Source: a virus. From it: a DNA stretch of 21,507 bases. Every line of letters begins with the position of its first letter. Position 1 is the first letter of the stretch. Shown piece by piece: positions 262-21,168 of the stretch. The position numbers and the translations under genes were made by a program. The notes below the pieces were generated by a model that saw only the letters and a program-made list of their open reading frames with translations, did not search any database and was not told where the DNA came from. Where the stretch lies: IMG/VR virus record IMGVR_UViG_3300033121_001702. One strand, written 5' to 3'.

Positions 262-277
262 AGTATATGTGTTTTTG

Positions 278-361
278 TGAGAGAGGAGGGATTCGAACCC
301 CCACACCCAAATGGGAACGATTTTACAGACCGTTGTAGCTCACCGTCTCTACAGCTCTCCC
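278..361 (-). tRNA. tRNA-Tyr (anticodon GUA), class II with a long variable arm; CCA not encoded
   Basis: Minus-strand read GGGAGAG-CT-GTAG-AGACGGTGAG-CTAC-A-ACGGT-CTGTAAA-ATCGT-(14-nt variable arm tCCCatttGGGtgt)-GGGGG-TTCGAAT-CCCTC-CTCTCTC-A. The 7-bp acceptor stem has one GU; anticodon loop CUGUAAA is identical to E. coli tRNA-Tyr; position 8 is C rather than U. Confidence 0.75.
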
Positions 362-505: not shown

Positions 506-534
506 AATATACAAAATTACTCAGAATTTGTCAA
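506..534 (-). promoter_or_regulatory. sigma70-type promoter P1: TTGACA-17nt-TATATT
   Basis: Minus-strand read TTGACAaattctgagtaattttgTATATTatag; -35 at 529-534, -10 at 506-511, spacer exactly 17 nt; near-identical to P2 at 4110-4138. Confidence 0.6.
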
Positions 535-1119: not shown

Positions 1120-2043
1120 TTAACTTCGTTGTTCGCTGGAAGTTGAAAAACCAACAGTACCAGATTCGGTAGCTGATTTTTTACGTGTTTCAATATTCTT
1201 TAGCTTTTCGATAGTATCTCGATAAGAAAGACCCAAACATTTTACTGCAACTACTAGTTCGGCTAAGGATGCAAAAGACAACCCTTCGCTTTCCTTAACC
1301 CACATTTCGATCTCCTGATTTGTTGAAGTGGTATTCAACTTCTTCAAAAGAAATTGTCGTCTGATTTCGGTTTTTGGCATATCAATGCGAAGAACTGTGT
1401 CAAAACGTCGTGGTCGTGCTGAAATTCGTTTATCTAACTCTTCTGGATAATTGGTGGTAGCTATGTTGATAACATGATTAATTTGTGACTCGCCGTCTAA
1501 TAATCGAAGAAAAGCACTTTCTTCGTATATTTTAACCAAATTATCTAAATCTTCGAACACACAAACAACAGGTTTTGTAGGCTCAATAAATCTAAATTTT
1601 GTAAGACCTTGTTCTAAAAATTCAGGATGTCCTGCTAAAAAACAAACTCCGCCTTGTGAGATAACGTGCAAAATAACTTGATGAACAATTGAAGTTTTAC
1701 CAGAACCCTGAGGTCCATAAAGTAAAAATCCTCGTTTGTGCACAAATTTATATGATTCAAAAGCAGTTGCGGTTGCCCAGAATTTGTTTGTTTCATTCAT
1801 TATTCGTTCGGATAAGTCATCTTTAAAAACAAACAATTCATCTGTATTTAAAGGCTGTGGAATATAAACTGGTTCACCATCATATTTGTCGATTCGATAA
1901 GAACCTGGACCTAAAGCTTTGTATGTATGCCCAACGGGTGAATAACCACCTAGCTTACTTACATATTGTGTGTAAAAATTTTTCTTAGTTGAACTTGTTG
2001 CTGCGACAGTTGGAGTAATATCAAAGGGATCAATTTGTTGCAT
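1120..2043 (-). CDS. AAA-family ATPase (classic AAA clade)
   Basis: Walker A LLYGPQGSGKTS, Walker B VVCVFEDLD, second region of homology ATTNYPEELDKRISARPRRFD (cf. ATNRPDxLDPALxRPGRFD). Confidence 0.8.
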   Translation of the reverse strand: MQQIDPFDITPTVAATSSTKKNFYTQYVSKLGGYSPVGHTYKALGPGSYRIDKYDGEPVYIPQPLNTDELFVFKDDLSERIMNETNKFWATATAFESYKFVHKRGFLLYGPQGSGKTSIVHQVILHVISQGGVCFLAGHPEFLEQGLTKFRFIEPTKPVVCVFEDLDNLVKIYEESAFLRLLDGESQINHVINIATTNYPEELDKRISARPRRFDTVLRIDMPKTEIRRQFLLKKLNTTSTNQEIEMWVKESEGLSFASLAELVVAVKCLGLSYRDTIEKLKNIETRKKSATESGTVGFSTSSEQRS

Positions 2044-2072
2044 TGTTTTTGTTTTTGTTTTTAGTTAGTTAA

Positions 2073-2282
2073 TTAACCACCACCGTAACAATATCCAGCA
2101 GTAGGTTCGTAATAAACATTTGGAGTTTTATCAAACTCATCTGGACCATTTATGTCATAGCCCAGTTTTTCTCTTACTAGTCTACGAGCTTCATCTTCAG
2201 TATATGCCATTGCAAAAGCAATACCAGAAGAGTAATCTTGTAGAACATCTTCCCAAACAAATAATTTTAGTTCTTCAGGCAT
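2073..2282 (-). CDS. hypothetical protein (69 aa)
   Basis: ORF track; gene-dense same-strand context. Confidence 0.4.
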   Translation of the reverse strand: MPEELKLFVWEDVLQDYSSGIAFAMAYTEDEARRLVREKLGYDINGPDEFDKTPNVYYEPTAGYCYGGG

Positions 2283-2392
2283 AATATTTCTTTCCTAAAT
2301 CATCACTGTGAAAAATCACTGTATATCCTAGAATGGTAACACATGCTAACATTCCTAAGAACCCAATGGTCATTATTATTTCAAATATCATT

Positions 2393-2599
2393 TTATTCTT
2401 CTTCTAATTCCTTTAAAGCTTCATCAAGGGCTTCTTCCAACTTATCATCATAAAAATGAAACATATCTTGAGGGCCTAGTCCTTTTAGATTAGATAATAA
2501 TTGACACAATCTAATATCGTGTTGATGCATGTATAGCTTAGTTAATTTGTCTATAAGACGTTGCTTGTCTTCTTTGTTACGATAGTTTATATATTCCAT
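2393..2599 (-). CDS. hypothetical protein (68 aa), acidic C-terminus
   Basis: ORF track; overlaps the thyX-like stop by 13 nt. Confidence 0.4.
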   Translation of the reverse strand: MEYINYRNKEDKQRLIDKLTKLYMHQHDIRLCQLLSNLKGLGPQDMFHFYDDKLEEALDEALKELEEE

Positions 2600-3558
2600 T
2601 TATTTCTCTCAATCATTTTCTGTACCACTTTCGGTGCTACATTGGCATTGATAACTTCAGATAGCATTAAACGTGCAACTTCCTGTATTTCAGGTTGCGC
2701 ATCTGGCGCTAAACGCTCACGTAATATATTCTCGAACGCACGAAGATTAAGAACTAACTTCATGTGAGTAATGAACGCAGTTCCAAGTATTCCACGAATA
2801 AATTCACGGGCGCGTTTATATTCTGCTTGAGTAATACGTTTTTCTTCAACCCAAGTTTTTAGCTCAGTAAGTTTATCTTCATAAGCCTTGTATTGTGCTT
2901 CTAACATACTTGCATACCAACCTTTTGGATTAACTCTAGAGATACAGTTATTCAATGTTGGTTCGCGTCGAACATTAAGAATTTTTTCTACATCTTCTGG
3001 CATTTCCAAAAACCGATTAGGAATTGTTCTATAACGGCCAGATAATTCATTCTGTGTGATATTATCACGACCCATTGGTGCAAAATTTGCAGTAATTTCT
3101 AAGCCACCAGCGGTAAACATCGTTAAATTATCAAGCAGTCTTTCATACCCACATGCTATGTAACTCCATTCTAATTCTTGCGGAGTCATTTCAGATTGTT
3201 TTTTTCCACTCGGAACATGTTTTAACGATTCTAAGTATTTACGCTGATATTGCTTATATAAGCGATTAACGCTATCTTCATCATAAACATTTCGAATATC
3301 CTGATACTGTTGTGTCATTCGATATTTATCAAGTTGACGTTCGATATAAATCGGTATCTCAAGATAAAATTCTAACCAAGTTGATTCCAACGGTGTTCCA
3401 TGACCTTGACCAACGACTATGTTTATAACTTTATCAATCTGTTCTTCTGTCTTTGTTTCAAATTTGTCTCTATCGTATGTGCTGGTCCACGCGCTTTCAC
3501 AAACCCGTTGGTCACCAGGTCCCCAGTGAGACAATAATTTAACTTTTATTTCGCTCAT
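2587..3558 (-). CDS. thyX: flavin-dependent thymidylate synthase ThyX-like protein, divergent
   Basis: Matches ThyX in three places: N-terminus (VKLLSHWGPGDQRVCESAWTS vs V-LL-h-p--------aaR-cy), GHGTPLESTWLEFYLEIPIYIERQ vs [24 protein letters not shown], and NELSGRY plus the C-terminal LNLRAFENILRERLAPDAQPEIQEVA block. The RHR of the RHRx7S motif reads KYR, and an insertion of about 85 aa separates it from NELSGRY. Confidence 0.6.
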   Translation of the reverse strand: MSEIKVKLLSHWGPGDQRVCESAWTSTYDRDKFETKTEEQIDKVINIVVGQGHGTPLESTWLEFYLEIPIYIERQLDKYRMTQQYQDIRNVYDEDSVNRLYKQYQRKYLESLKHVPSGKKQSEMTPQELEWSYIACGYERLLDNLTMFTAGGLEITANFAPMGRDNITQNELSGRYRTIPNRFLEMPEDVEKILNVRREPTLNNCISRVNPKGWYASMLEAQYKAYEDKLTELKTWVEEKRITQAEYKRAREFIRGILGTAFITHMKLVLNLRAFENILRERLAPDAQPEIQEVARLMLSEVINANVAPKVVQKMIERNKWNI

Positions 3559-4090
3559 TTTCTTCCATATCTTTTAATATTAATTTCATTTCATACAGAG
3601 TTGCATCATTTCGCAAAGCATTTGCTCTAAATGAAATAACTCTTACATTTCCTTTGATATATCCTTCAGAATTGTTAATTCTATCTAAAGTTGGTGATGT
3701 CATAATTGGACCATTTCCATTAAGATTTCGCTCTAATTTAATTCCAAGAATAGGACAATATTCAGGAATAGTTACATCTTCAATCGTTAGATTATATTCT
3801 AATCCTTTAGTTTTTGCACGATGACGTGCTTTAACTAGTAAACCCATTTCTGGATTGTCATGCCTCCATTTAGTTGCATAAGCTTTTCGTTCTTTAAATT
3901 TACGTTGTAAATAGTCTTTACTCCAAATACGTTTCTTTTCTTTTTGTTCTGGAGTTGAACGATACTTATTATGATATTCATTCAGACAATCTTTACATTG
4001 ATTGAGATAACCATCTTTGGATGCTGTTTTCTTTGAAAAACGTTCTATTGGTTTTTCTATCTGACATTTTTTACATATTTTAGTACTCAT
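3539..4090 (-). CDS. HNH homing endonuclease (free-standing)
   Basis: N-terminal CKKCqiekpierF...CKDC zinc motif typical of phage HNH endonucleases, and C-terminal LDRINNSEGYIKGNVRVISFRAN (HNH_3-like). SD GGAAAGGAG 8 nt before the ATG at 4090; overlaps the thyX-like start by 20 nt. Confidence 0.8.
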   Translation of the reverse strand: MSTKICKKCQIEKPIERFSKKTASKDGYLNQCKDCLNEYHNKYRSTPEQKEKKRIWSKDYLQRKFKERKAYATKWRHDNPEMGLLVKARHRAKTKGLEYNLTIEDVTIPEYCPILGIKLERNLNGNGPIMTSPTLDRINNSEGYIKGNVRVISFRANALRNDATLYEMKLILKDMEENERNKS

Positions 4091-4109
4091 AAGAAATCTC
4101 CTTTCCTAT

Positions 4110-4138
4110 AATATACTAAATTATGCAGAATTTGTCAA
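4110..4138 (-). promoter_or_regulatory. sigma70-type promoter P2 driving the HNH endonuclease gene
   Basis: Minus-strand read TTGACAaattctgcataatttagTATATTataggaaaggagatttcttATG; -35 at 4133-4138, -10 at 4110-4115, spacer 17 nt. Confidence 0.65.
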
Positions 4139-4161
4139 GTGTTTTTATAAAGAATATAGAT

Positions 4162-4190
4162 AAATAAAAAGAGCCGAAGCTCTTTCTTTA
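4162..4190. terminator. bidirectional rho-independent terminator
   Basis: AAGAGC-cgaa-GCTCTT hairpin flanked by A-run and T-run (aaaaAGAGCcgaaGCTCTttcttt); on the minus strand it follows the stop of the 4227..4529 gene. Confidence 0.5.
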
Positions 4191-4226
4191 TAACGTATCA
4201 GGAACAAAGTCCTCAGTTTATTTTTA

Positions 4227-4529
4227 CTAGTTTTCTTCTAAATATTTTTGCATATCCAAAAAGAAAACTTCTGCCCAAAGTTCGGTATGAAATTTTAACA
4301 TTTCTTCGTGACGCCTTCTTATTCGTAATTCAATCAAAGGCAGAAGGTCGTTTTGACCTTCTGATTCAGCATACGCATATAATCCAGCATCTGAGTCTTG
4401 TTTTTCGTACAAAACATTGTAACGTTCGAAATCTGGACCCAACTTTTCCAGAATTTCTGAATCCGTTAACGTTATACATTCATACGATTCGCCAAAAGGT
4501 TCCAGCTGATCCAAATCAAATTCACTCAT
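4227..4529 (-). CDS. hypothetical acidic protein (100 aa)
   Basis: ORF track; followed by the terminator at 4162-4190. Confidence 0.45.
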   Translation of the reverse strand: MSEFDLDQLEPFGESYECITLTDSEILEKLGPDFERYNVLYEKQDSDAGLYAYAESEGQNDLLPLIELRIRRRHEEMLKFHTELWAEVFFLDMQKYLEEN

Positions 4530-4580
4530 AACAATACCTTTGGTTGTTTACTTCTTATTCCACAAGAGAGTTAATTTTCA

Positions 4581-4784
4581 TTATTTAAATTTCTCCACGT
4601 CTTTTGCTATTTGATTTAGAATTACATCTAAATCTGTGTTTTGATAGAAAGGTGTTTCTACCGTTTCTTCGGGCTCTCTGTGCCATTCAGCATGAGCTTC
4701 GTATATGTTTTCGTGCGGCATAGTTATAACTAATACCATACCTTTTTGTGCGGTTAAAATTGTGTTAATTTGATTCATCGTCAT
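4581..4784 (-). CDS. hypothetical protein (67 aa)
   Basis: ORF track. Confidence 0.4.
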   Translation of the reverse strand: MTMNQINTILTAQKGMVLVITMPHENIYEAHAEWHREPEETVETPFYQNTDLDVILNQIAKDVEKFK

Positions 4785-4971
4785 ATTCTAATAAAATTTG
4801 TTCGGCTTCAAATTTGCCATATAAAGTTCTTAACTCTTCGATTAGAAAATTTAATCTTAATCTATCTTCATGGGATAAATTTGAAGGTATAGTTTCATTT
4901 TTTAATCCATTCCAATGATGTCTGAGCGCATGTCGAACTTCATTCCATTTTTCTGTAAAGTTGTTTGTCAT
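4765..4971 (-). CDS. hypothetical protein (68 aa)
   Basis: ORF track. Confidence 0.4.
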   Translation of the reverse strand: MTNNFTEKWNEVRHALRHHWNGLKNETIPSNLSHEDRLRLNFLIEELRTLYGKFEAEQILLEYDDESN

Positions 4972-5149
4972 TTTAAATCCTATAACTCATTTTAACATAT
5001 TCTTCTTCTGTAAATTTGAAATATCACAATCTTCGGTATGTGGAGCATTTTTGATTATTTCCCGAAGTTGAGCATTTTCTTCTTTGAGTTGTTTAACTTC
5101 TTCAGAATCGTCTACATCATCAAAATTCCATACATGTATGCTCATACTT

Positions 5150-5440
5150 TTATTGACCTTTTTTAACTCGAATAATTAACCAACTAAGTAAATTTATTTT
5201 ACCTTCACCAACTTGTTCTTGATAAGCAGCTTTTACAATATGGTATACTTTCGTAATCTCATCTTGCAATTCATCAGACATTTCTACTAAACTTTGAATA
5301 TGAAAATCCGCTTCAGCGACATCAAACTTTTCATCAGCAAACCACATACACCAAGCTCTATCATCCACAACACTGGTTACGGTCATTAGCGGTCCACCGC
5401 TTTTTAATTTTACAGTACTTCCAATTTTAATCATTTCCAA
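5150..5440 (-). CDS. hypothetical protein (96 aa), YodC/DUF2158-like small protein?
   Basis: ORF track; motif KLKSGGPLMTV, family assignment uncertain. Confidence 0.4.
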   Translation of the reverse strand: MEMIKIGSTVKLKSGGPLMTVTSVVDDRAWCMWFADEKFDVAEADFHIQSLVEMSDELQDEITKVYHIVKAAYQEQVGEGKINLLSWLIIRVKKGQ

Positions 5441-7826: not shown

Positions 7827-8102
7827 TTAATCCTCAGTTACTTTTTTTAAAATAGGATAATAACCTAATTCGAGTGAATTATAATTTAAATCGGATTGAA
7901 TAATAATTGGATTTTCCATAATAAAAGTACCAATCCAATGTGCTTCATCGACTTTTAGAATCTTATAATCCGTTATTCTATTATCTTTGATATTTGTTTT
8001 CTTTTTCATTTCAGACAAAACGAATTCACATGCATTTTGAAATTTTTCAAAATAGTGAATATCAGATTTATTGTCGAAAGGCATTGTTATATAAAATTCC
8101 AT
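7827..8102 (-). CDS. hypothetical protein
   Basis: ATG at 8102 overlaps the upstream TAA by 1 nt (TAATG), suggesting translational coupling; the ORF-track start at 8111 is also possible. Confidence 0.45.
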   Translation of the reverse strand: MEFYITMPFDNKSDIHYFEKFQNACEFVLSEMKKKTNIKDNRITDYKILKVDEAHWIGTFIMENPIIIQSDLNYNSLELGYYPILKKVTED

Positions 8103-16342: not shown

Positions 16343-16377
16343 CGTACTACTATTAGATTTCCTAATCCTGTATTGAA

Positions 16378-17034
16378 CTATACAGTTGTAGTCTGGACTA
16401 TTTCTTCACCTTGAATATTCTTATTTTTAGGTGTTCCGTGCATAGTCTCTGAAGCTTCCTCTTTATTAAGAGGCTCGCCTGCTGGTTGTACAATATCACT
16501 TATTTTTATAACATTCGCACTCGTTGTTGCCAACCATGCTGTAGTTAAGTGATCTCTAAGTGTTTTCCAGCAATTCTCGGAAATACTACTGTTCTTTTTC
16601 AAGTACAGCGACCTGTGATGTTGTAAATAGCGATGTAAAGAATTATGAGCACTAGTTGCTAAAATCCATAAATTCTCAGATTGGTTGTTTTGTGGATTTT
16701 CATCTACATGGTGCACAACATGATATTTTGGAATAGCAATTCCCAGTGACTTAACATAAGAGCGACCTACGGTCATCCCAGTTTTATCTCTGGGAACTTT
16801 ATTATAATCTTCAACAACTTTATATCGACACCCAATGTGTGCAACTTGATTTTTTCTCCAAGCTTTCATTGGTTGTTTACATACCGCACACTCACTCAGA
16901 CAATAGTGGTTGCCATATTTTTTAGTCCGTTGACGATTATATTCTTTTGCACACTCTTTGCATCTTTTTCGTTCTACAACACCTACTTTTCCACAATCAA
17001 TACATTTCTTTTCGGATAAAGGTATTTTTGACAT
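16378..17034 (-). CDS. HNH endonuclease (free-standing, or encoded in an intron-like insertion)
   Basis: CIDCGKVG...CKEC zinc motif and HNH motif HHVDENPQNNQSENLWILATSAHNSLH; start at ATG 17034 with SD GGAG (the ORF-track start at 17100 lies upstream of the promoter -10 box). Confidence 0.75.
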   Translation of the reverse strand: MSKIPLSEKKCIDCGKVGVVERKRCKECAKEYNRQRTKKYGNHYCLSECAVCKQPMKAWRKNQVAHIGCRYKVVEDYNKVPRDKTGMTVGRSYVKSLGIAIPKYHVVHHVDENPQNNQSENLWILATSAHNSLHRYLQHHRSLYLKKNSSISENCWKTLRDHLTTAWLATTSANVIKISDIVQPAGEPLNKEEASETMHGTPKNKNIQGEEIVQTTTV

Positions 17035-17065
17035 TTTAGCTCCAATCTTGTTTTCGTATACATAC

Positions 17066-17094
17066 AATATACAAAATTGGAAGGTACTTGTCAA
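17066..17094 (-). promoter_or_regulatory. sigma70-type promoter P4 driving the second HNH gene
   Basis: Minus-strand read TTGACAagtaccttccaattttgTATATTgtatg; -35 at 17089-17094, -10 at 17066-17071, spacer 17. Confidence 0.6.
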
Positions 17095-17114
17095 GTTCAT
17101 TTGTGGAAATGTTT

Positions 17115-17216: not shown

Positions 17217-17615
17217 TTAATCAGAAAAAGGTATATGTTTGGTTTGTTGCTGTAATTCTTCGGAACGCGTTACCGAAACAATTGCAGCGTCTTGTATGTG
17301 AAACCATTGAGTCAAACCCTCCATGGCTATAGTTAAATTAAACTCTTTACAAGAATAAAGATCACATGAAAAATAACACAGCTCTGGCCACGTATGAATA
17401 GTCATATGACTTTCGGCCCAGATCGCAGTGCCTGTAACTCCCGATTGTTGGTCACCCACGCTCGGAAATCCGTATATTATCGGATTTTGCATTAACGTCA
17501 TTCCCAGTTGAGACGTTATTGTGCGCATCACATTGTCTATATAATTTGTATTGACAAGTAAGTGTACAAAGGCTGGGTCAACCTTACAGTCAAGAATTAA
17601 GTGCATGCCGTGCAA
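17217..17615 (-). CDS. speH: S-adenosylmethionine decarboxylase proenzyme, pyruvoyl-dependent (SpeH/class 1 AdoMetDC-like)
   Basis: HLILDCKVD...GFPSVGDQQSGVTGTAIWAESHMTIHTWPELCYFSCDLYSC aligns with Bacillus/archaeal SpeH ([31 protein letters not shown]), including the ES|H serine that is processed to pyruvoyl. Confidence 0.8.
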   Translation of the reverse strand: MHGMHLILDCKVDPAFVHLLVNTNYIDNVMRTITSQLGMTLMQNPIIYGFPSVGDQQSGVTGTAIWAESHMTIHTWPELCYFSCDLYSCKEFNLTIAMEGLTQWFHIQDAAIVSVTRSEELQQQTKHIPFSD

Positions 17616-18635: not shown

Positions 18636-18787
18636 TTGTTAATTTGTCCAATAGTTTATAAAACCATTTTTTGAATTGTTTACGTTCGGATTTATTTAGA
18701 TGTCGATCTTTTTTAAAGCACCCATCACCATTAAAATCCCAACGCATTCCTTTTGGTCTTCGTTTTGTTGATTTTTTCATATTGTTG

Positions 18788-18862
18788 TACCCCAAGAGGG
18801 ATTCGAACCCCCGACCTGCGGTTTAGAAAACCGATGCTCTAATTCCGCTGAGCTACTGGGGC
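18788..18862 (-). tRNA. tRNA-Arg (anticodon UCU)
   Basis: Minus-strand read GCCCCAG-TA-GCTC-AGCGGAATTA-GAGC-A-TCGGT-TTTCTAA-ACCGC-AGGTC-GGGGG-TTCGAAT-CCCTC-TTGGGGT-A; only a 27:43 mismatch; T4-like phages commonly carry tRNA-Arg(UCU). Confidence 0.8.
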
Positions 18863-19154: not shown

Positions 19155-19580
19155 TTACCACAAAAATCTAACGTTTGTATAAACGCTTAGAATGGGTTTG
19201 ATTGTTGGTTCTATTATTTGCTCAAATATGCCATAATCATTGGCCAGCCCCGCACCAACTTTACTTATCAAGTAAATTTTATCAGGGTTGGATTCGATTT
19301 CTTGAATAAGTTTATCTAATTCAACTTTAAATAACCACGCGTATTCCCATGGTTCATAACATGCGTCTTCATTATGTTTTGGTGTGCGTTTAGTGATAAA
19401 CCCATATGTATTTGGTAAATGTCGAAGTTTTGCCGCTCCACCGGTACCTTTATGCCACGTATTATCACCAAAAACAAAAATTTCGTTTGGATGTTCTAAA
19501 AGATATTCTTCAGTTATCTCGTTTTGTACTTCTAATTTATCTTTGAGTACAAGAATTTTATCAATATTTTCTGGATTCAT
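19155..19580 (-). CDS. conserved hypothetical protein (IFVFGDNtwhkGTGGAAKL motif)
   Basis: Gly-rich motif after a hydrophobic beta-strand suggests a Rossmann-like nucleotide or ligand-binding fold; family not confidently recognised; 4-nt overlap with the PTH2 gene. Confidence 0.45.
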   Translation of the reverse strand: MNPENIDKILVLKDKLEVQNEITEEYLLEHPNEIFVFGDNTWHKGTGGAAKLRHLPNTYGFITKRTPKHNEDACYEPWEYAWLFKVELDKLIQEIESNPDKIYLISKVGAGLANDYGIFEQIIEPTIKPILSVYTNVRFLW

Positions 19581-19957
19581 AATAATTTTAACTCTCCAGT
19601 TATTTCATCTATTACTTCGGACCAATCTGGTCCCAGTGCCATACATGTAATTGTTGGTACACCGTTAAATTCAGTATCCCCTGAATCTGTAATAATCTTG
19701 CAGGGTACGTGTGAAGCATAAGCTTCATGTGCAAGTGCTAAAAGTTCGCCTTCAGAATCTACTGAAACACAAACTTTTTTAAAACTGTAACCAGATTCCG
19801 GATCCATCCATAATCGCATGGGTTCCGAAATCTGATTGCGTCTTTGAGCATCTAAAATTAAACCAAGACATGCGTGTGCTCCTTGTGCCACCATTTTACC
19901 TTTGCGCATATTTAGATCTTTGCGCATTACGATGACTTGTTTTATATCTCTTTTCAT
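19577..19957 (-). CDS. pth2: peptidyl-tRNA hydrolase, PTH2 family
   Basis: KQVIVMRKDLNMRKGKMVAQGAHACLGL matches PTH2 [26 protein letters not shown]; the C-terminal GVPTITCMALGPDWSEVIDEITGELKLL matches [26 protein letters not shown]. Confidence 0.8.
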   Translation of the reverse strand: MKRDIKQVIVMRKDLNMRKGKMVAQGAHACLGLILDAQRRNQISEPMRLWMDPESGYSFKKVCVSVDSEGELLALAHEAYASHVPCKIITDSGDTEFNGVPTITCMALGPDWSEVIDEITGELKLL

Positions 19958-21168
19958 GTTCGTAAATGTGGAAACAAAATAACTTCTTTAATGCTATCAA
20001 TATCGAACATTGTCATAAATAATCTATCAATACCGATACCCATGCCACCGGCTGGAGGCATACCGTATTTTAAAGCTTGTAAGAAATCTTCGTCTAACGG
20101 ATAATCGGTATTAACTTGATTCATAAACATTCGACGTTGTTCTTCGTAGTCATTTTGTTCTGAATATATATTTGCTAATTCAACACCTTTCCAGTAAAAT
20201 TGTGCTTTTTCTGCTAATCCTTTAACTCCATGTTCTTTTGCTAAAGGAACTAATTCTCGTGGATAATTTACCACACTACATAAATCTTGTAATGTGGATT
20301 GAACGTGTTGTTTAAAATAATCATCTTTTTCAGCTAATGGAATTTCTTTAGGTACTAAGTTATTATATTGATGAATTTTGTGCATCATAACAGCTTTACC
20401 TAAAAATTTCTTTGAAAGATGTGAAATTAATTCTTGAAACAAAACACTCATTGTACAATAATCAGCATATGCTTGATAAATTTCAATCATTGTAAATTCA
20501 GGATTGTGTGTTTTGTCCATACCTTCGTTGCGGAAATTTTTACCAATTTCAAATATTTTTTCAAACCCGCCTACTAAGAGACGCTTTAAATACAACTCTG
20601 GAGCAATACGTAAATACATATCTTGATTAAGTGAGTTATATTTCGTAATAAATGGTTTAGCAGTTGCTCCGCCATATACTGGTTGTAAAATTGGTGTTTC
20701 AACTTCCGTAAAATAATGTGTTTCGGTCAAATATTTACGAATTTCGTAAATAAAATCACTACGCAATCTAAAGATTTTATAGACTTCTGGATTAATTTGA
20801 AGATCTATATATCTTTGACGATATCGAGTTTCTTTGTCTGTAATTTGAAAATATTCCGCATCTTCAGTAGATTTCGGAAAAGGCATTGAAATTACTGGAA
20901 CATGTTGAATTTTAAATTTCAATACACGTAGAGATGGTTCCCCTGTCTTTGTTACAAACTCTTCGGCTTCATGAACGGAAATCAAATCTCCAACTTTCAA
21001 ATTAAGAAACTCATCAAAATTTTCGGTAACATCTTTCTTTGCATAAAGCTGAATAGCTTCTCCGTATGACATGATATGCACAAAAGATGATTTTCCCATT
21101 ACACGGACTGATTTTACACGTCCGTTATAATTGTATACTTTAGTAATTGAAGACTCGTTGGTGTCCAC
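19954..21168 (-). CDS. lysS: lysyl-tRNA synthetase, class II (LysRS), with a shortened N-terminal anticodon-binding domain
   Basis: RYRQRYIDL signature; motif 2 NFRNEGM; motif 3 GGMGIGIDRL; the core GGATAKPFITKYNSLNQDMYLRIAPELYLKRLLVGGFEKIFEIGKNFRNEGMDKTHNPEFTMIEIYQAYADY is nearly identical to E. coli LysS; 404 aa vs about 505. Confidence 0.9.
   Translation of the reverse strand: MDTNESSITKVYNYNGRVKSVRVMGKSSFVHIMSYGEAIQLYAKKDVTENFDEFLNLKVGDLISVHEAEEFVTKTGEPSLRVLKFKIQHVPVISMPFPKSTEDAEYFQITDKETRYRQRYIDLQINPEVYKIFRLRSDFIYEIRKYLTETHYFTEVETPILQPVYGGATAKPFITKYNSLNQDMYLRIAPELYLKRLLVGGFEKIFEIGKNFRNEGMDKTHNPEFTMIEIYQAYADYCTMSVLFQELISHLSKKFLGKAVMMHKIHQYNNLVPKEIPLAEKDDYFKQHVQSTLQDLCSVVNYPRELVPLAKEHGVKGLAEKAQFYWKGVELANIYSEQNDYEEQRRMFMNQVNTDYPLDEDFLQALKYGMPPAGGMGIGIDRLFMTMFDIDSIKEVILFPHLRT

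Follow-up and report, generated by a model that had tools for sequence, protein, structure and literature searches.

A divergent phage ThyX with a remodelled and split signature motif beside a putative PacI-like nuclease gene

Phages carry free-standing homing endonucleases such as T4 mobE, encoded between nrdA and nrdB, and the products of the seg genes, and I-TevI in td is their intron-borne counterpart. In collaborative homing, introns that lack an open reading frame (ORF) protect an allele from a neighbouring free-standing endonuclease. Here we describe a locus in the IMG/VR virus record IMGVR_UViG_3300033121_001702, a stretch of 21,507 nucleotides (nt) that is called the window below and is numbered from its first letter. 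A thyX-like gene for a protein of 323 amino acids (aa; 2587..3558) adjoins a gene for a putative free-standing endonuclease of 183 aa (3539..4090). In this part of the window every gene is on the minus strand, as are the genes and signals of the window whose coordinates are given here. We assign a probability of about 0.62 to the reading that the locus pairs an active, divergent phage ThyX, which would convert deoxyuridine monophosphate (dUMP) to deoxythymidine monophosphate (dTMP), with a selfish PacI-type nuclease cassette. Taken as a whole, the locus combines familiar elements in an uncommon version and does not amount to a system of a new kind.

ThyX is an antibacterial drug target whose signature, RHRX7S (Myllykallio 2002), is regarded as defining and essential and has been used to filter sequences for phylogenies (PMC2826268). 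The RHR residues bind the phosphates and ribityl of flavin adenine dinucleotide (FAD), with the first Arg also at the isoalloxazine ring (PMC6514825), and R78, R80, S88 and R90 are direct dUMP contacts (PMC3498832). Inteins in ThyX are known in mycobacteriophages of cluster C1 (PMC5050341). PacI, a bacterial restriction enzyme, is the type member of group 20 of the His-Me finger nucleases, a His-less and predominantly viral group in which a Tyr of the omega loop takes the place of the His and the metal ligands are Asp and Asn (PMC5714182, PMC4081073).

The ThyX-like protein and its clade

The 323-aa coding sequence (CDS) begins with MSEIKVKLL, as in its homologues, and its product belongs to a DKYR/beta-hairpin subfamily described below. 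The protein matched Pfam PF02511 Thy1 in two stretches with 80.6 bits (gathering cut-off 24.8) and PHROG 85, again in two separated stretches. An AlphaFold2 (AF2) model based on an alignment of 114 sequences had a mean predicted local distance difference test score (pLDDT) of 87.6, and the top 50 fold matches of this model in the PDB were all ThyX, with a probability of 1.0 and a TM-score of about 0.6 normalised to the target. A search of viral folds in BFVD returned distant ThyX matches only, at identities of at most 17%.

An ungapped alignment of PIYIERQLDKYRM with PIFVARQWFRHRI of Thermotoga maritima (Tm) ThyX placed Lys at R78 and Tyr at H79, and R80 was kept. The K78-Y79-R80 codons that stand in place of canonical RHR lie at 3319..3327, and their translation was checked. 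The serine half of the signature, NELSGRY (residues 170-176, 3031..3051), aligns to Tm N85-Y91, with S173, R175 and Y176 at the positions of S88, R90 and Y91. The distance from R80 to S173 is 93 positions, as opposed to 8 in canonical ThyX, which amounts to 85 extra residues. An earlier reading of the letters alone (the sequence-only reading) had proposed that the N- and C-terminal ThyX blocks and NELSGRY were kept, that KYR had replaced RHR and that some 85 residues had been inserted before the serine; its alignment by eye was right on each of these points, and RHR, which it had allowed might be present after all, is absent.

A search of 5.8 billion proteins yielded 125 relatives of the 323-aa protein, all of them metagenomic and none more than 82% identical to it. 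The alignment of 114 sequences divides into 103 with an insertion, referred to here as the KYR clade (clade counts are out of these 103), and a sister group of 11 that has (T/S)-H-R at the canonical spacing of 8. The clade follows the pattern D-K-[Y]-R-M-T-x-Q-Y-Q-D ... G-R-x-x-I-T-Q-N-E-L-S-G-R-Y; K78 is found in 103/103, Y79 in 92/103 and R80 in 102/103, and the S, R and Y of NELSGRY are each found in 103/103. Two of the three RHR residues are thereby replaced, and the motif is split by a structured insertion with invariant residues of its own, in a natural clade that is both large and well conserved. The chief interest of the clade is this natural variation at a motif thought essential in a drug-target enzyme.

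Spacing between motif and serine in the clade is typically 28, equivalent to an insertion of 20 residues, and in the AF2 model this insertion is a beta-hairpin with strands 82-90 and 155-160. Within the first of these strands, the window protein has the clade-wide TQQYQDI (residues 82-88, 3295..3315), and the second strand is part of ANFAPMGRDNI, which includes the G-R segment (residues 157-167, 3058..3090). Two hairpin glutamines are almost without exception (Q84 in 103/103, Q86 in 102/103). A hairpin Arg stands at position 164 in 89 sequences, at 160 in 14, at both in 1 and at neither in 0/103, and the 14 sequences with Arg160 have Gly, Cys or Ala at 164. Because every clade sequence has an Arg at one position or the other, the pattern argues for a compensatory swap and for a functional requirement for this side chain. 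We infer that the hairpin Arg may compensate for the remodelled RHR.

The window protein has a second layer, a nested and lineage-specific insertion (residues 89-156, 3091..3294) for which the model predicts a helical hairpin at the beta-hairpin's tip (AF2 helices 94-112 and 126-150). When its 68 residues were used in an exhaustive HMMER search of 1.84 billion representatives, only the window protein itself and one spurious 15-residue repeat match were returned. The relative L012 is cleanly without the nested insertion at the DNA level, and the first 88 codons of its thyX have a proportion of nonsynonymous differences (pN) of 0.04 to the window. Other relatives carry inserts at the same tip, of 50 residues in P0004, 99 in P0005 and about 24 in P0038, P0090, P0091 and P0102. 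BLASTP among nested inserts of different lineages gave nothing significant (E at least 1.9), and homology among them is not claimable. Because the nested part is lineage-specific and unrelated inserts occur at the same tip, the tip is, as judged from these alignments, a permissive and fast-evolving site, one that naturally tolerates inserts of 24 to 99 residues. The nested 65-residue segment of the window is almost neutral, with a ratio of nonsynonymous to synonymous substitution rates (dN/dS) of 0.4-0.9 against L001 and L003, to which the segments are essentially unalignable.

The 99-residue insert of P0005 (L001:8001-9050) has a Cys/His-rich stretch, NCTCDDD...GYCSVHG, that might bind metal. 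An intein was also considered for the nested insertion of the window and was rejected: there is no Pfam intein match, the prediction is helical and not a Hint fold, and the boundary residues of an intein, a Cys/Ser start and an HN-Cys/Ser/Thr end, are absent. Among the options that the sequence-only reading had left, an accessory insertion fits best: a beta-hairpin that is kept across the clade and to whose tip this lineage has added a helical decoration. The alignment and structure prediction that it had proposed as a check place the extra residues between R80 and S173, in a predicted beta-hairpin that bears the helical hairpin at its end.

To place the clade among sequenced phages, 50,697 phage records were searched. 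A near-identity DNA search of these records with 2000..4600 gave no match, and tblastn of the 323-aa protein and of the clade member P0029 gave weak matches only, to canonical actinophage ThyX and one Vibrio phage, and so no deposited phage represents the clade. When the clade alignment was used for a pattern scan across 185,579 species-representative genomes, no relatives were found. Members of the clade were found in IMG/VR and in contigs of 130-180 kb, and the clade is known only from large phages that are uncultured. Literature searches on ThyX residues, on variants of the RHR motif and on ThyX in hypermodified phages gave no description of a KYR or insertion clade. By its sequences, the KYR/beta-hairpin clade is a large phage ThyX subfamily that, as far as we found, has not previously been described.

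Cultured Bacillus phages offer parallels. The gp9 protein of phage SP-15 has KYR and a 45-residue insertion at the same point, and scores 120 bits in TIGR02170 (equivalog cut-off 87.9 bits); Andromeda-like and 056SW001B-like phages have KYV or KYL with 4-10 extra residues, again at this point. All of these proteins are annotated thymidylate synthase, and the actinophage proteins called "ThyX-like" are canonical. The Bacillus-phage proteins share with the window protein the Lys-Tyr in place of Arg-His and the site of insertion, but they are only 26-27% identical to it, are nearer to canonical ThyX (39% to T. maritima) and, unlike the window protein, clear the TIGR02170 cut-off (120 bits). No homology links their inserts to the QYQD...GR hairpin, and the Andromeda-like proteins have also lost R80 (KYV, KYL), which the window protein keeps.

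Extra sequence at the same active-site loop of ThyX is seen in the inteins as well. In addition to those of cluster C1, a sister-group THR ThyX (L037:8948-10762) contains an intein that spans about 375 residues and includes an HNH domain and a helix-turn-helix (Intein_splicing 49.6 bits, HNH 34.3 bits in the Pfam library used for the window proteins). This intein lies at THRIA|C...HN|SHNGMSGRY, exactly between the motif and the serine segment. The window insertion differs from these inteins in being without splicing motifs and predicted to be helical, and it is presumably retained in the mature protein. Because of the Bacillus-phage inserts, the L037 intein and the mycobacteriophage inteins, the segment between RHR and the serine is, on present alignments, a recurrent insertion site in phage ThyX. 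The change of motif in the window is less exceptional because of this recurrent indel site and because of the Lys-Tyr variants in cultured Bacillus phages; the sequence-only reading had named a known variable loop, or RHR being present after all, as findings that would count against it, and the first of these partly applies, but the RHR residues are truly replaced.

Active-site residues and the likely reaction

Canonical ThyX proteins (T. maritima TM0449, M. tuberculosis, PBCV-1 A674R) and the window protein have the same fold and the same Pfam family, and the window protein keeps the equivalents of Tm H53, R74, Q75, R80, N85, E86, S88, R90, Y91, R147, N163, R165 and R174. It differs from them in having KYR for RHR, 85 extra residues, Ser for H59, Asp for H178, a score below the TIGR02170 cut-off and an extra 16-residue helical segment ahead of the KRAREF helix. 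Across the clade, S26, H53, P56, S173, R175, Y176, R251, R255, R282, Q288 and E290 are invariant, and E58, R74, Q75, R80 and N271 are nearly so (98-102/103). This conserved set includes the equivalents of Tm H53, R80, S88, R90, Y91, R147 and R174. When the dUMP contacts R78, R80, S88 and R90 are taken together with R147 and R174, the clade has R80, S173, R175, R255 and R282 without variation (R80 with the one exception given above), and R78 is Lys in 103/103; either this Lys or the hairpin Arg might stand in for it. Against L012, dN/dS was 0.04 over residues 1-88 and 0.15 overall. Because the aligned active-site residues are kept and dN/dS is as low as 0.04-0.15, the 323-aa protein is most likely a functional, divergent thymidylate synthase and not a dead gene.

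Loss of function, which the sequence-only reading had also offered, was not supported. A decaying or catalytically dead relic, whose activity was destroyed by the motif change and the 85-residue insertion, would fit with the disturbance of both halves of the ThyX signature and with the near-neutral evolution of the nested insertion against L001 and L003. We regard a relic as extremely improbable, given the strong purifying selection on the core, a fold that is predicted with confidence, and more than 100 diverged clade members with an intact ORF, invariant catalytic residues and the compensatory Arg swap.

Several observations weigh against an active thymidylate synthase. The RHRX7S signature is not present in the 323-aa protein, which has K78-Y79-R80, then 92 residues, then S173. 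The TIGR02170 score of the protein is 74.5 bits, below the equivalog cut-off, and six other members of the KYR clade score 41-72 bits, also below it; the THR/SHR sister group scores 116-120 bits and T. maritima ThyX 227. R78 and H79, both lost here, are reported to contact dUMP as well as the phosphates, ribityl and isoalloxazine ring of FAD (PMC6514825, PMC3498832), and their loss could mean that cofactor or substrate handling has changed. The equivalent of Tm R165, the second FAD-phosphate Arg, is Asn in 75/103 clade members. The AF2 model is that of a ligand-free monomer and not of the tetrameric active site, and literature searches found no assayed enzyme of the KYR clade or of the Bacillus-phage K-Y group. 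The window is probably a fragment of a very large phage, and because it covers only 21.5 kb of a probably much larger genome, a second thymidylate synthase could be encoded elsewhere.

At the Tm R165 position, Asn co-varies in the clade with a new Arg at the Tm H59 position, and the window protein keeps the ancestral pair, R273 (Tm R165) with S59. The gene context favours an active ThyX. No ThyA-like ORF was found in the window or in any related locus with an approximate query and flanks of up to 10 kb on each side. The thyX genes of relatives sit among genes for dUTPase, deoxynucleoside monophosphate (dNMP) kinase and NT5C.

In the functional reading, the protein would convert dUMP to dTMP and use methylene-tetrahydrofolate and reduced flavin to do so. 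At the aligned positions it retains the residues for uracil, the dUMP phosphate and the folate/flavin stack, and the flavin-phosphate-binding RHR is remodelled to K-Y-R. The hairpin between R80 and the serine, with its two near-invariant Gln and obligatory Arg, may supply replacement active-site contacts or a lid, and the 65-residue helical hairpin on the solvent-exposed tip may be a tolerated surface decoration. An active KYR clade would reveal which of the contacts to flavin and dUMP an enzyme can do without, and what can replace them.

The same remodelling could instead point to new chemistry. The KYR/beta-hairpin ThyX would then be a flavin-dependent pyrimidine-modifying enzyme that feeds DNA modification, or an enzyme with an altered nucleotide or cofactor preference; one example would be a synthase of 5-hydroxymethyl-dUMP, a product formed when water traps the exocyclic methylene intermediate, through which the ThyX mechanism is known to go (PMC8989533). 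The changes are mostly confined to the flavin/substrate loop and come with new invariant residues, the TIGR02170 cut-off separates the clade from the sister THR/SHR group that passes it, and an NT5C-type deoxynucleotidase, dNMP kinase, dUTPase and uracil-DNA glycosylase family gene occur near clade members. A precedent was proposed for gp130 of SP-15, whose thymine is hypermodified; gp130 is the second Thy1 protein of that phage, far more divergent than the first, and was hypothesised to be a hydroxymethyluridylate synthase with a non-thymidylate product (PMC5977210).

That proposal is itself a hypothesis only, and gp130 (TIGR02170 26.7 bits) has lost most motif residues, whereas the window protein keeps them and the aligned uracil and phosphate binders R175, R255, R282, S173 and Y176 are invariant in the clade. 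Neither a glycosyltransferase, a 5-hydroxymethyldeoxyuridine kinase nor another hypermodification gene was found in the window or flanks, the approximate ThyA query found no second thymidylate synthase nearby, and the K-Y variants occur in ordinary Bacillus siphophages. We consider a new reaction unlikely, with only a small chance of being correct. A similarly small chance is given to a combined version, in which K-Y-R, Gln84, Gln86 and the obligatory Arg would redirect the exocyclic-methylene intermediate or cofactor chemistry and, separately, the tip insertion would shield the allele from the nuclease. Should the KYR clade make something other than thymidylate, it would provide the first case in phages of an enzyme that derives from ThyX and has a new product.

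The nuclease gene upstream of thyX

The 183-aa protein matches PHROGs annotated endonuclease and endonuclease VII. Searches of Pfam and NCBIfam with this protein and 39 homologues found no nuclease family and no Pfam HNH model, and a fold search was needed to place it. In a comparison of the family profile with the whole PDB, PacI was the sole match, with a marginal E of 0.007, and both CxxC pairs and VDRSDSFEGYSPQNARLACFICN of PacI were aligned. The N-terminal CxxC...CxxC motif, which is zinc-ribbon-like (C6, C9, C32, C35; 3986..4075), aligns to PacI CPRC...CKGC. The putative catalytic core DRINNSEGYIKGNVRVISFRAN (D136, R137, Y144, N148, N157; 3620..3685), taken from the alignment of the homologues, aligns to VDRSDSFEGYSPQNARLACFICN, with the PacI core reading VDR..EGY..N..CN. 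The 39 homologues all have C112, D136, I138, N148 and N157, and at least 90% of them have G143 and Y144, which gives a core of LDRI..GY..GNV..IS..AN.

In the AF2 model of the nuclease (pLDDT 96), a zinc-ribbon-like beta unit at the N-terminus is followed by a long helical hairpin and, at the C-terminus, by a beta-beta-alpha unit, and a beta-beta-alpha-metal fold is accordingly what the model predicts for this protein. At the position of the general-base His of HNH, the family has Arg or Lys, which is R137 of D136-R137 in the window protein. D136 and N157 would be the Asp and Asn metal ligands of a PacI-like site and Y144 the omega-loop Tyr that stands for His. On this evidence the 183-aa protein is classified as a PacI-like His-Me finger nuclease. 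The sequence-only reading had called it an HNH endonuclease, which is correct at the level of the fold, but it is not a canonical HNH protein in that it has no Pfam HNH match, Arg for His and a PacI-like, Tyr-type site.

The likeness to PacI (3LDY, 3M7K) is distant (identity about 18%). Where PacI has its second Cys4 site, ACFICN, the window nuclease reads ISFRAN and lacks the site, and a long helical hairpin is inserted at residues 47-95. PacI is a bacterial restriction enzyme, whereas the window nuclease is phage-encoded and adjoins thyX. The nuclease extends the poorly sampled PacI-like, His-less branch of the His-Me finger nucleases to tailed phages and to a homing-type setting.

The nuclease ORF has an AAGGAG Shine-Dalgarno sequence 8 nt ahead of its ATG, and its end lies within the first thyX codons, an overlap of 20 nt (3539..3558) that has counterparts in L024 and L036. 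Ahead of the gene is a sigma-70-type promoter, TTGACA-17-TATATT (4110..4138), which agrees at 11/12 positions, and just before the promoter is an intrinsic-terminator-like stem-loop with a T-run that ends the upstream unit (4166..4187). Both the 20-nt overlap and a promoter belonging to the nuclease gene had been read from the letters and were confirmed. As a class, promoter-like sites are not enriched (24 found vs 29 expected); the first 7 kb has its two best sites at 4138..4110 and, as an extended and near-identical copy, at 534..506. The extended block reads TTGACAAATTCTG..TAATTT.GTATATTATAG in its copies at 506..534 and 4110..4138. A 31-nt promoter block is also kept in the related contig L001, and the sharing of the block by the window copies and L001 suggests a phage promoter family. 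An Rfam scan of 2587..4138 found no match, neither to a group I intron nor to another RNA.

The guanine-plus-cytosine (GC) content of the nuclease gene is 0.295, below that of thyX (0.366) and of the window as a whole (0.356). The window, L004 and L005 have the gene, with proteins that are 100% identical, and L012, L003 and L001, which carry the same thyX subclade, do not. In L012, sequence similar to the window starts shortly before the start codon of thyX, around the ribosome-binding site of that gene. In the comparison with L004, there are 0 mismatches in the 1160 nt (3400..4559) centred on the nuclease gene, and 27 mismatches in 938 nt and 5 in 800 nt elsewhere; three flanking stretches, 92-99% identical, have 3, 0.6 and 8.4 per 100 nt. 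Two patches stand out from a background that is 92-100% identical. One, a putative recombination patch at 2406..2980, covers the thyX 3' half and a small ORF (2393..2599); in it, identity to L004 drops from 96-100% to about 79% or the sequences are unalignable, and the window is nearer to P0003/L012; the other, 4600..5150, is unalignable and forms the other bound of the identical tract. Because its 5' half resembles L004 and its divergent 3' half is nearer L012, thyX of the window is chimeric by this comparison. The small ORFs at 4581..5145 and 2393..2599 are different genes in L004.

The position upstream of thyX is occupied in other phages as well. In the unrelated IMG/VR contigs L024 (9381-10001) and L036 (9475-10017), distant homologues of the nuclease (YNG[IL]DRIN..GY..N..CC.ICN) lie directly upstream of a sister-group thyX, and their 3' ends overlap the thyX start by a few to 26 nt. 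Other homologues are found in unrelated early-gene contexts. In L003, the ORF upstream of thyX ends in NESNKS and the nuclease ends in NERNKS, a likeness that arises because both ORFs read the conserved first thyX codons in another frame. In Escherichia phage vB-EcoP-XT18, an HNH gene is annotated under a thyX match.

Sporadic presence at a fixed site beside a conserved gene is the hallmark of a homing endonuclease, and it is seen here in the window, L004 and L005 as opposed to L012, L003 and L001. The nuclease gene is probably a mobile, free-standing homing endonuclease gene, with cleavage, target and conversion predicted from the comparison of genomes. The sequence-only reading had recognised a homing endonuclease next to a gene of nucleotide metabolism, and the gene's own promoter, low GC, sporadic presence and the same position in L024 and L036 agree with it. 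With T4 mobE and the seg genes it shares the features of a small gene with its own promoter, placed between conserved genes, sporadic in occurrence and with a mosaic neighbour. It differs from the T4-type enzymes in its family, which is PacI-like and neither classical HNH nor GIY-YIG, and in that homing is read here from sequence alone. Two further points count against homing: L012 is the only close nuclease-free allele, and mosaicism is common among phages without homing.

A PacI-like protein may have another role, such as degradation of host DNA, restriction of competitors or DNA binding without catalysis. The canonical catalytic His is missing, viral homologues of PacI have been speculated to be viral restriction enzymes (PMC5714182), one PHROG match is to a family annotated as Srd anti-sigma factor, and most homologues are found among small early genes, away from thyX. 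Against these roles stand the sporadic presence of the gene among near-identical genomes, its low GC, its place in a perfectly identical tract between divergent patches, and the independent finding of related genes just ahead of thyX in L024 and L036, and we judge a non-homing function to be the less likely account, with only a small chance of being right.

In the homing account, the nuclease would bind its metal through Asp and Asn, with a Tyr as substitute for the general-base His. Its gene would be a selfish cassette that brought a promoter along and settled right at the 5' side of thyX, into which its reading frame extends by 20 nt. The enzyme would cut nuclease-free genomes near thyX and so spread among related phages, and recombinational repair, copying the cassette with its flanks, would account for the mosaic thyX.

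The nested insertion and the nuclease gene may also be connected. The 65-residue insertion could be the footprint of a selfish element, such as a degenerate mini-intein or an immunity patch, that blocks the nuclease target and travels with the nuclease; an immunity patch would be an in-frame, protein-level counterpart of collaborative homing, with its free-standing endonuclease and ORF-less intron. Both the nuclease gene and the nested insertion are present in the window, L004 and L005 and both are missing in L012, the tract identical to L004 spans the two, an HNH intein interrupts the L037 ThyX at exactly this point, and ThyX inteins occur in mycobacteriophages (PMC5050341). Four alleles, however, are far too few for a correlation, L003 and L001 carry other tip inserts without an adjacent nuclease, and the nested insertion has none of the intein hallmarks (Pfam, boundary residues, helical prediction). 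We therefore rate such a footprint as very doubtful, and prefer a tolerated decoration of ThyX next to a homing cassette. The recurrence of the nuclease next to thyX, together with the L037 intein in the same loop, makes this a locus for studying the convergence of selfish nucleases.

Genome setting

Elsewhere in the window, on the minus strand as above, a second endonuclease ORF (16378..17100; Pfam HNH_3, PHROG HNH) overlaps at its 3' end an Rfam group I intron match of 51.1 bits (16373..16638; gathering score 50). The stretch 16373..17100 probably encodes an intron-associated homing endonuclease.

Translation genes are represented by a class II aminoacyl-tRNA synthetase (19954..21168; tRNA-synt_2, E 1e-75, with an OB anticodon-binding domain), an adjoining PTH2 peptidyl-tRNA hydrolase (19577..19957), and tRNA genes Tyr-GTA (277..361), Met-CAT (9711..9782), Glu-TTC (9873..9948), Phe-GAA (14866..14941) and Arg-TCT (18787..18862). 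An 879-aa protein (12271..14910), in which Major Vault Protein shoulder and Vault_3 repeat domains but no PHROG were matched, is followed by TerC (11451..12158) and a TerF-like protein of the von Willebrand factor A type (10732..11430). The window also holds a homologue of S-adenosylmethionine decarboxylase (17217..17615) and a DenV-like pyrimidine-dimer DNA glycosylase (8102..8623).

Downstream of thyX lies an AAA ATPase gene (1120..2043). The best matches of its product among deposited phages, at 31-33% identity, are in LR756508, LR756511 and LR756500, which are uncultured phages of 460-595 kb. In L006 and L007, contigs of 156-172 kb with a KYR-clade thyX, genes for GGDEF-domain proteins and a NUDIX-PI3/PI4-kinase fusion are found near thyX.

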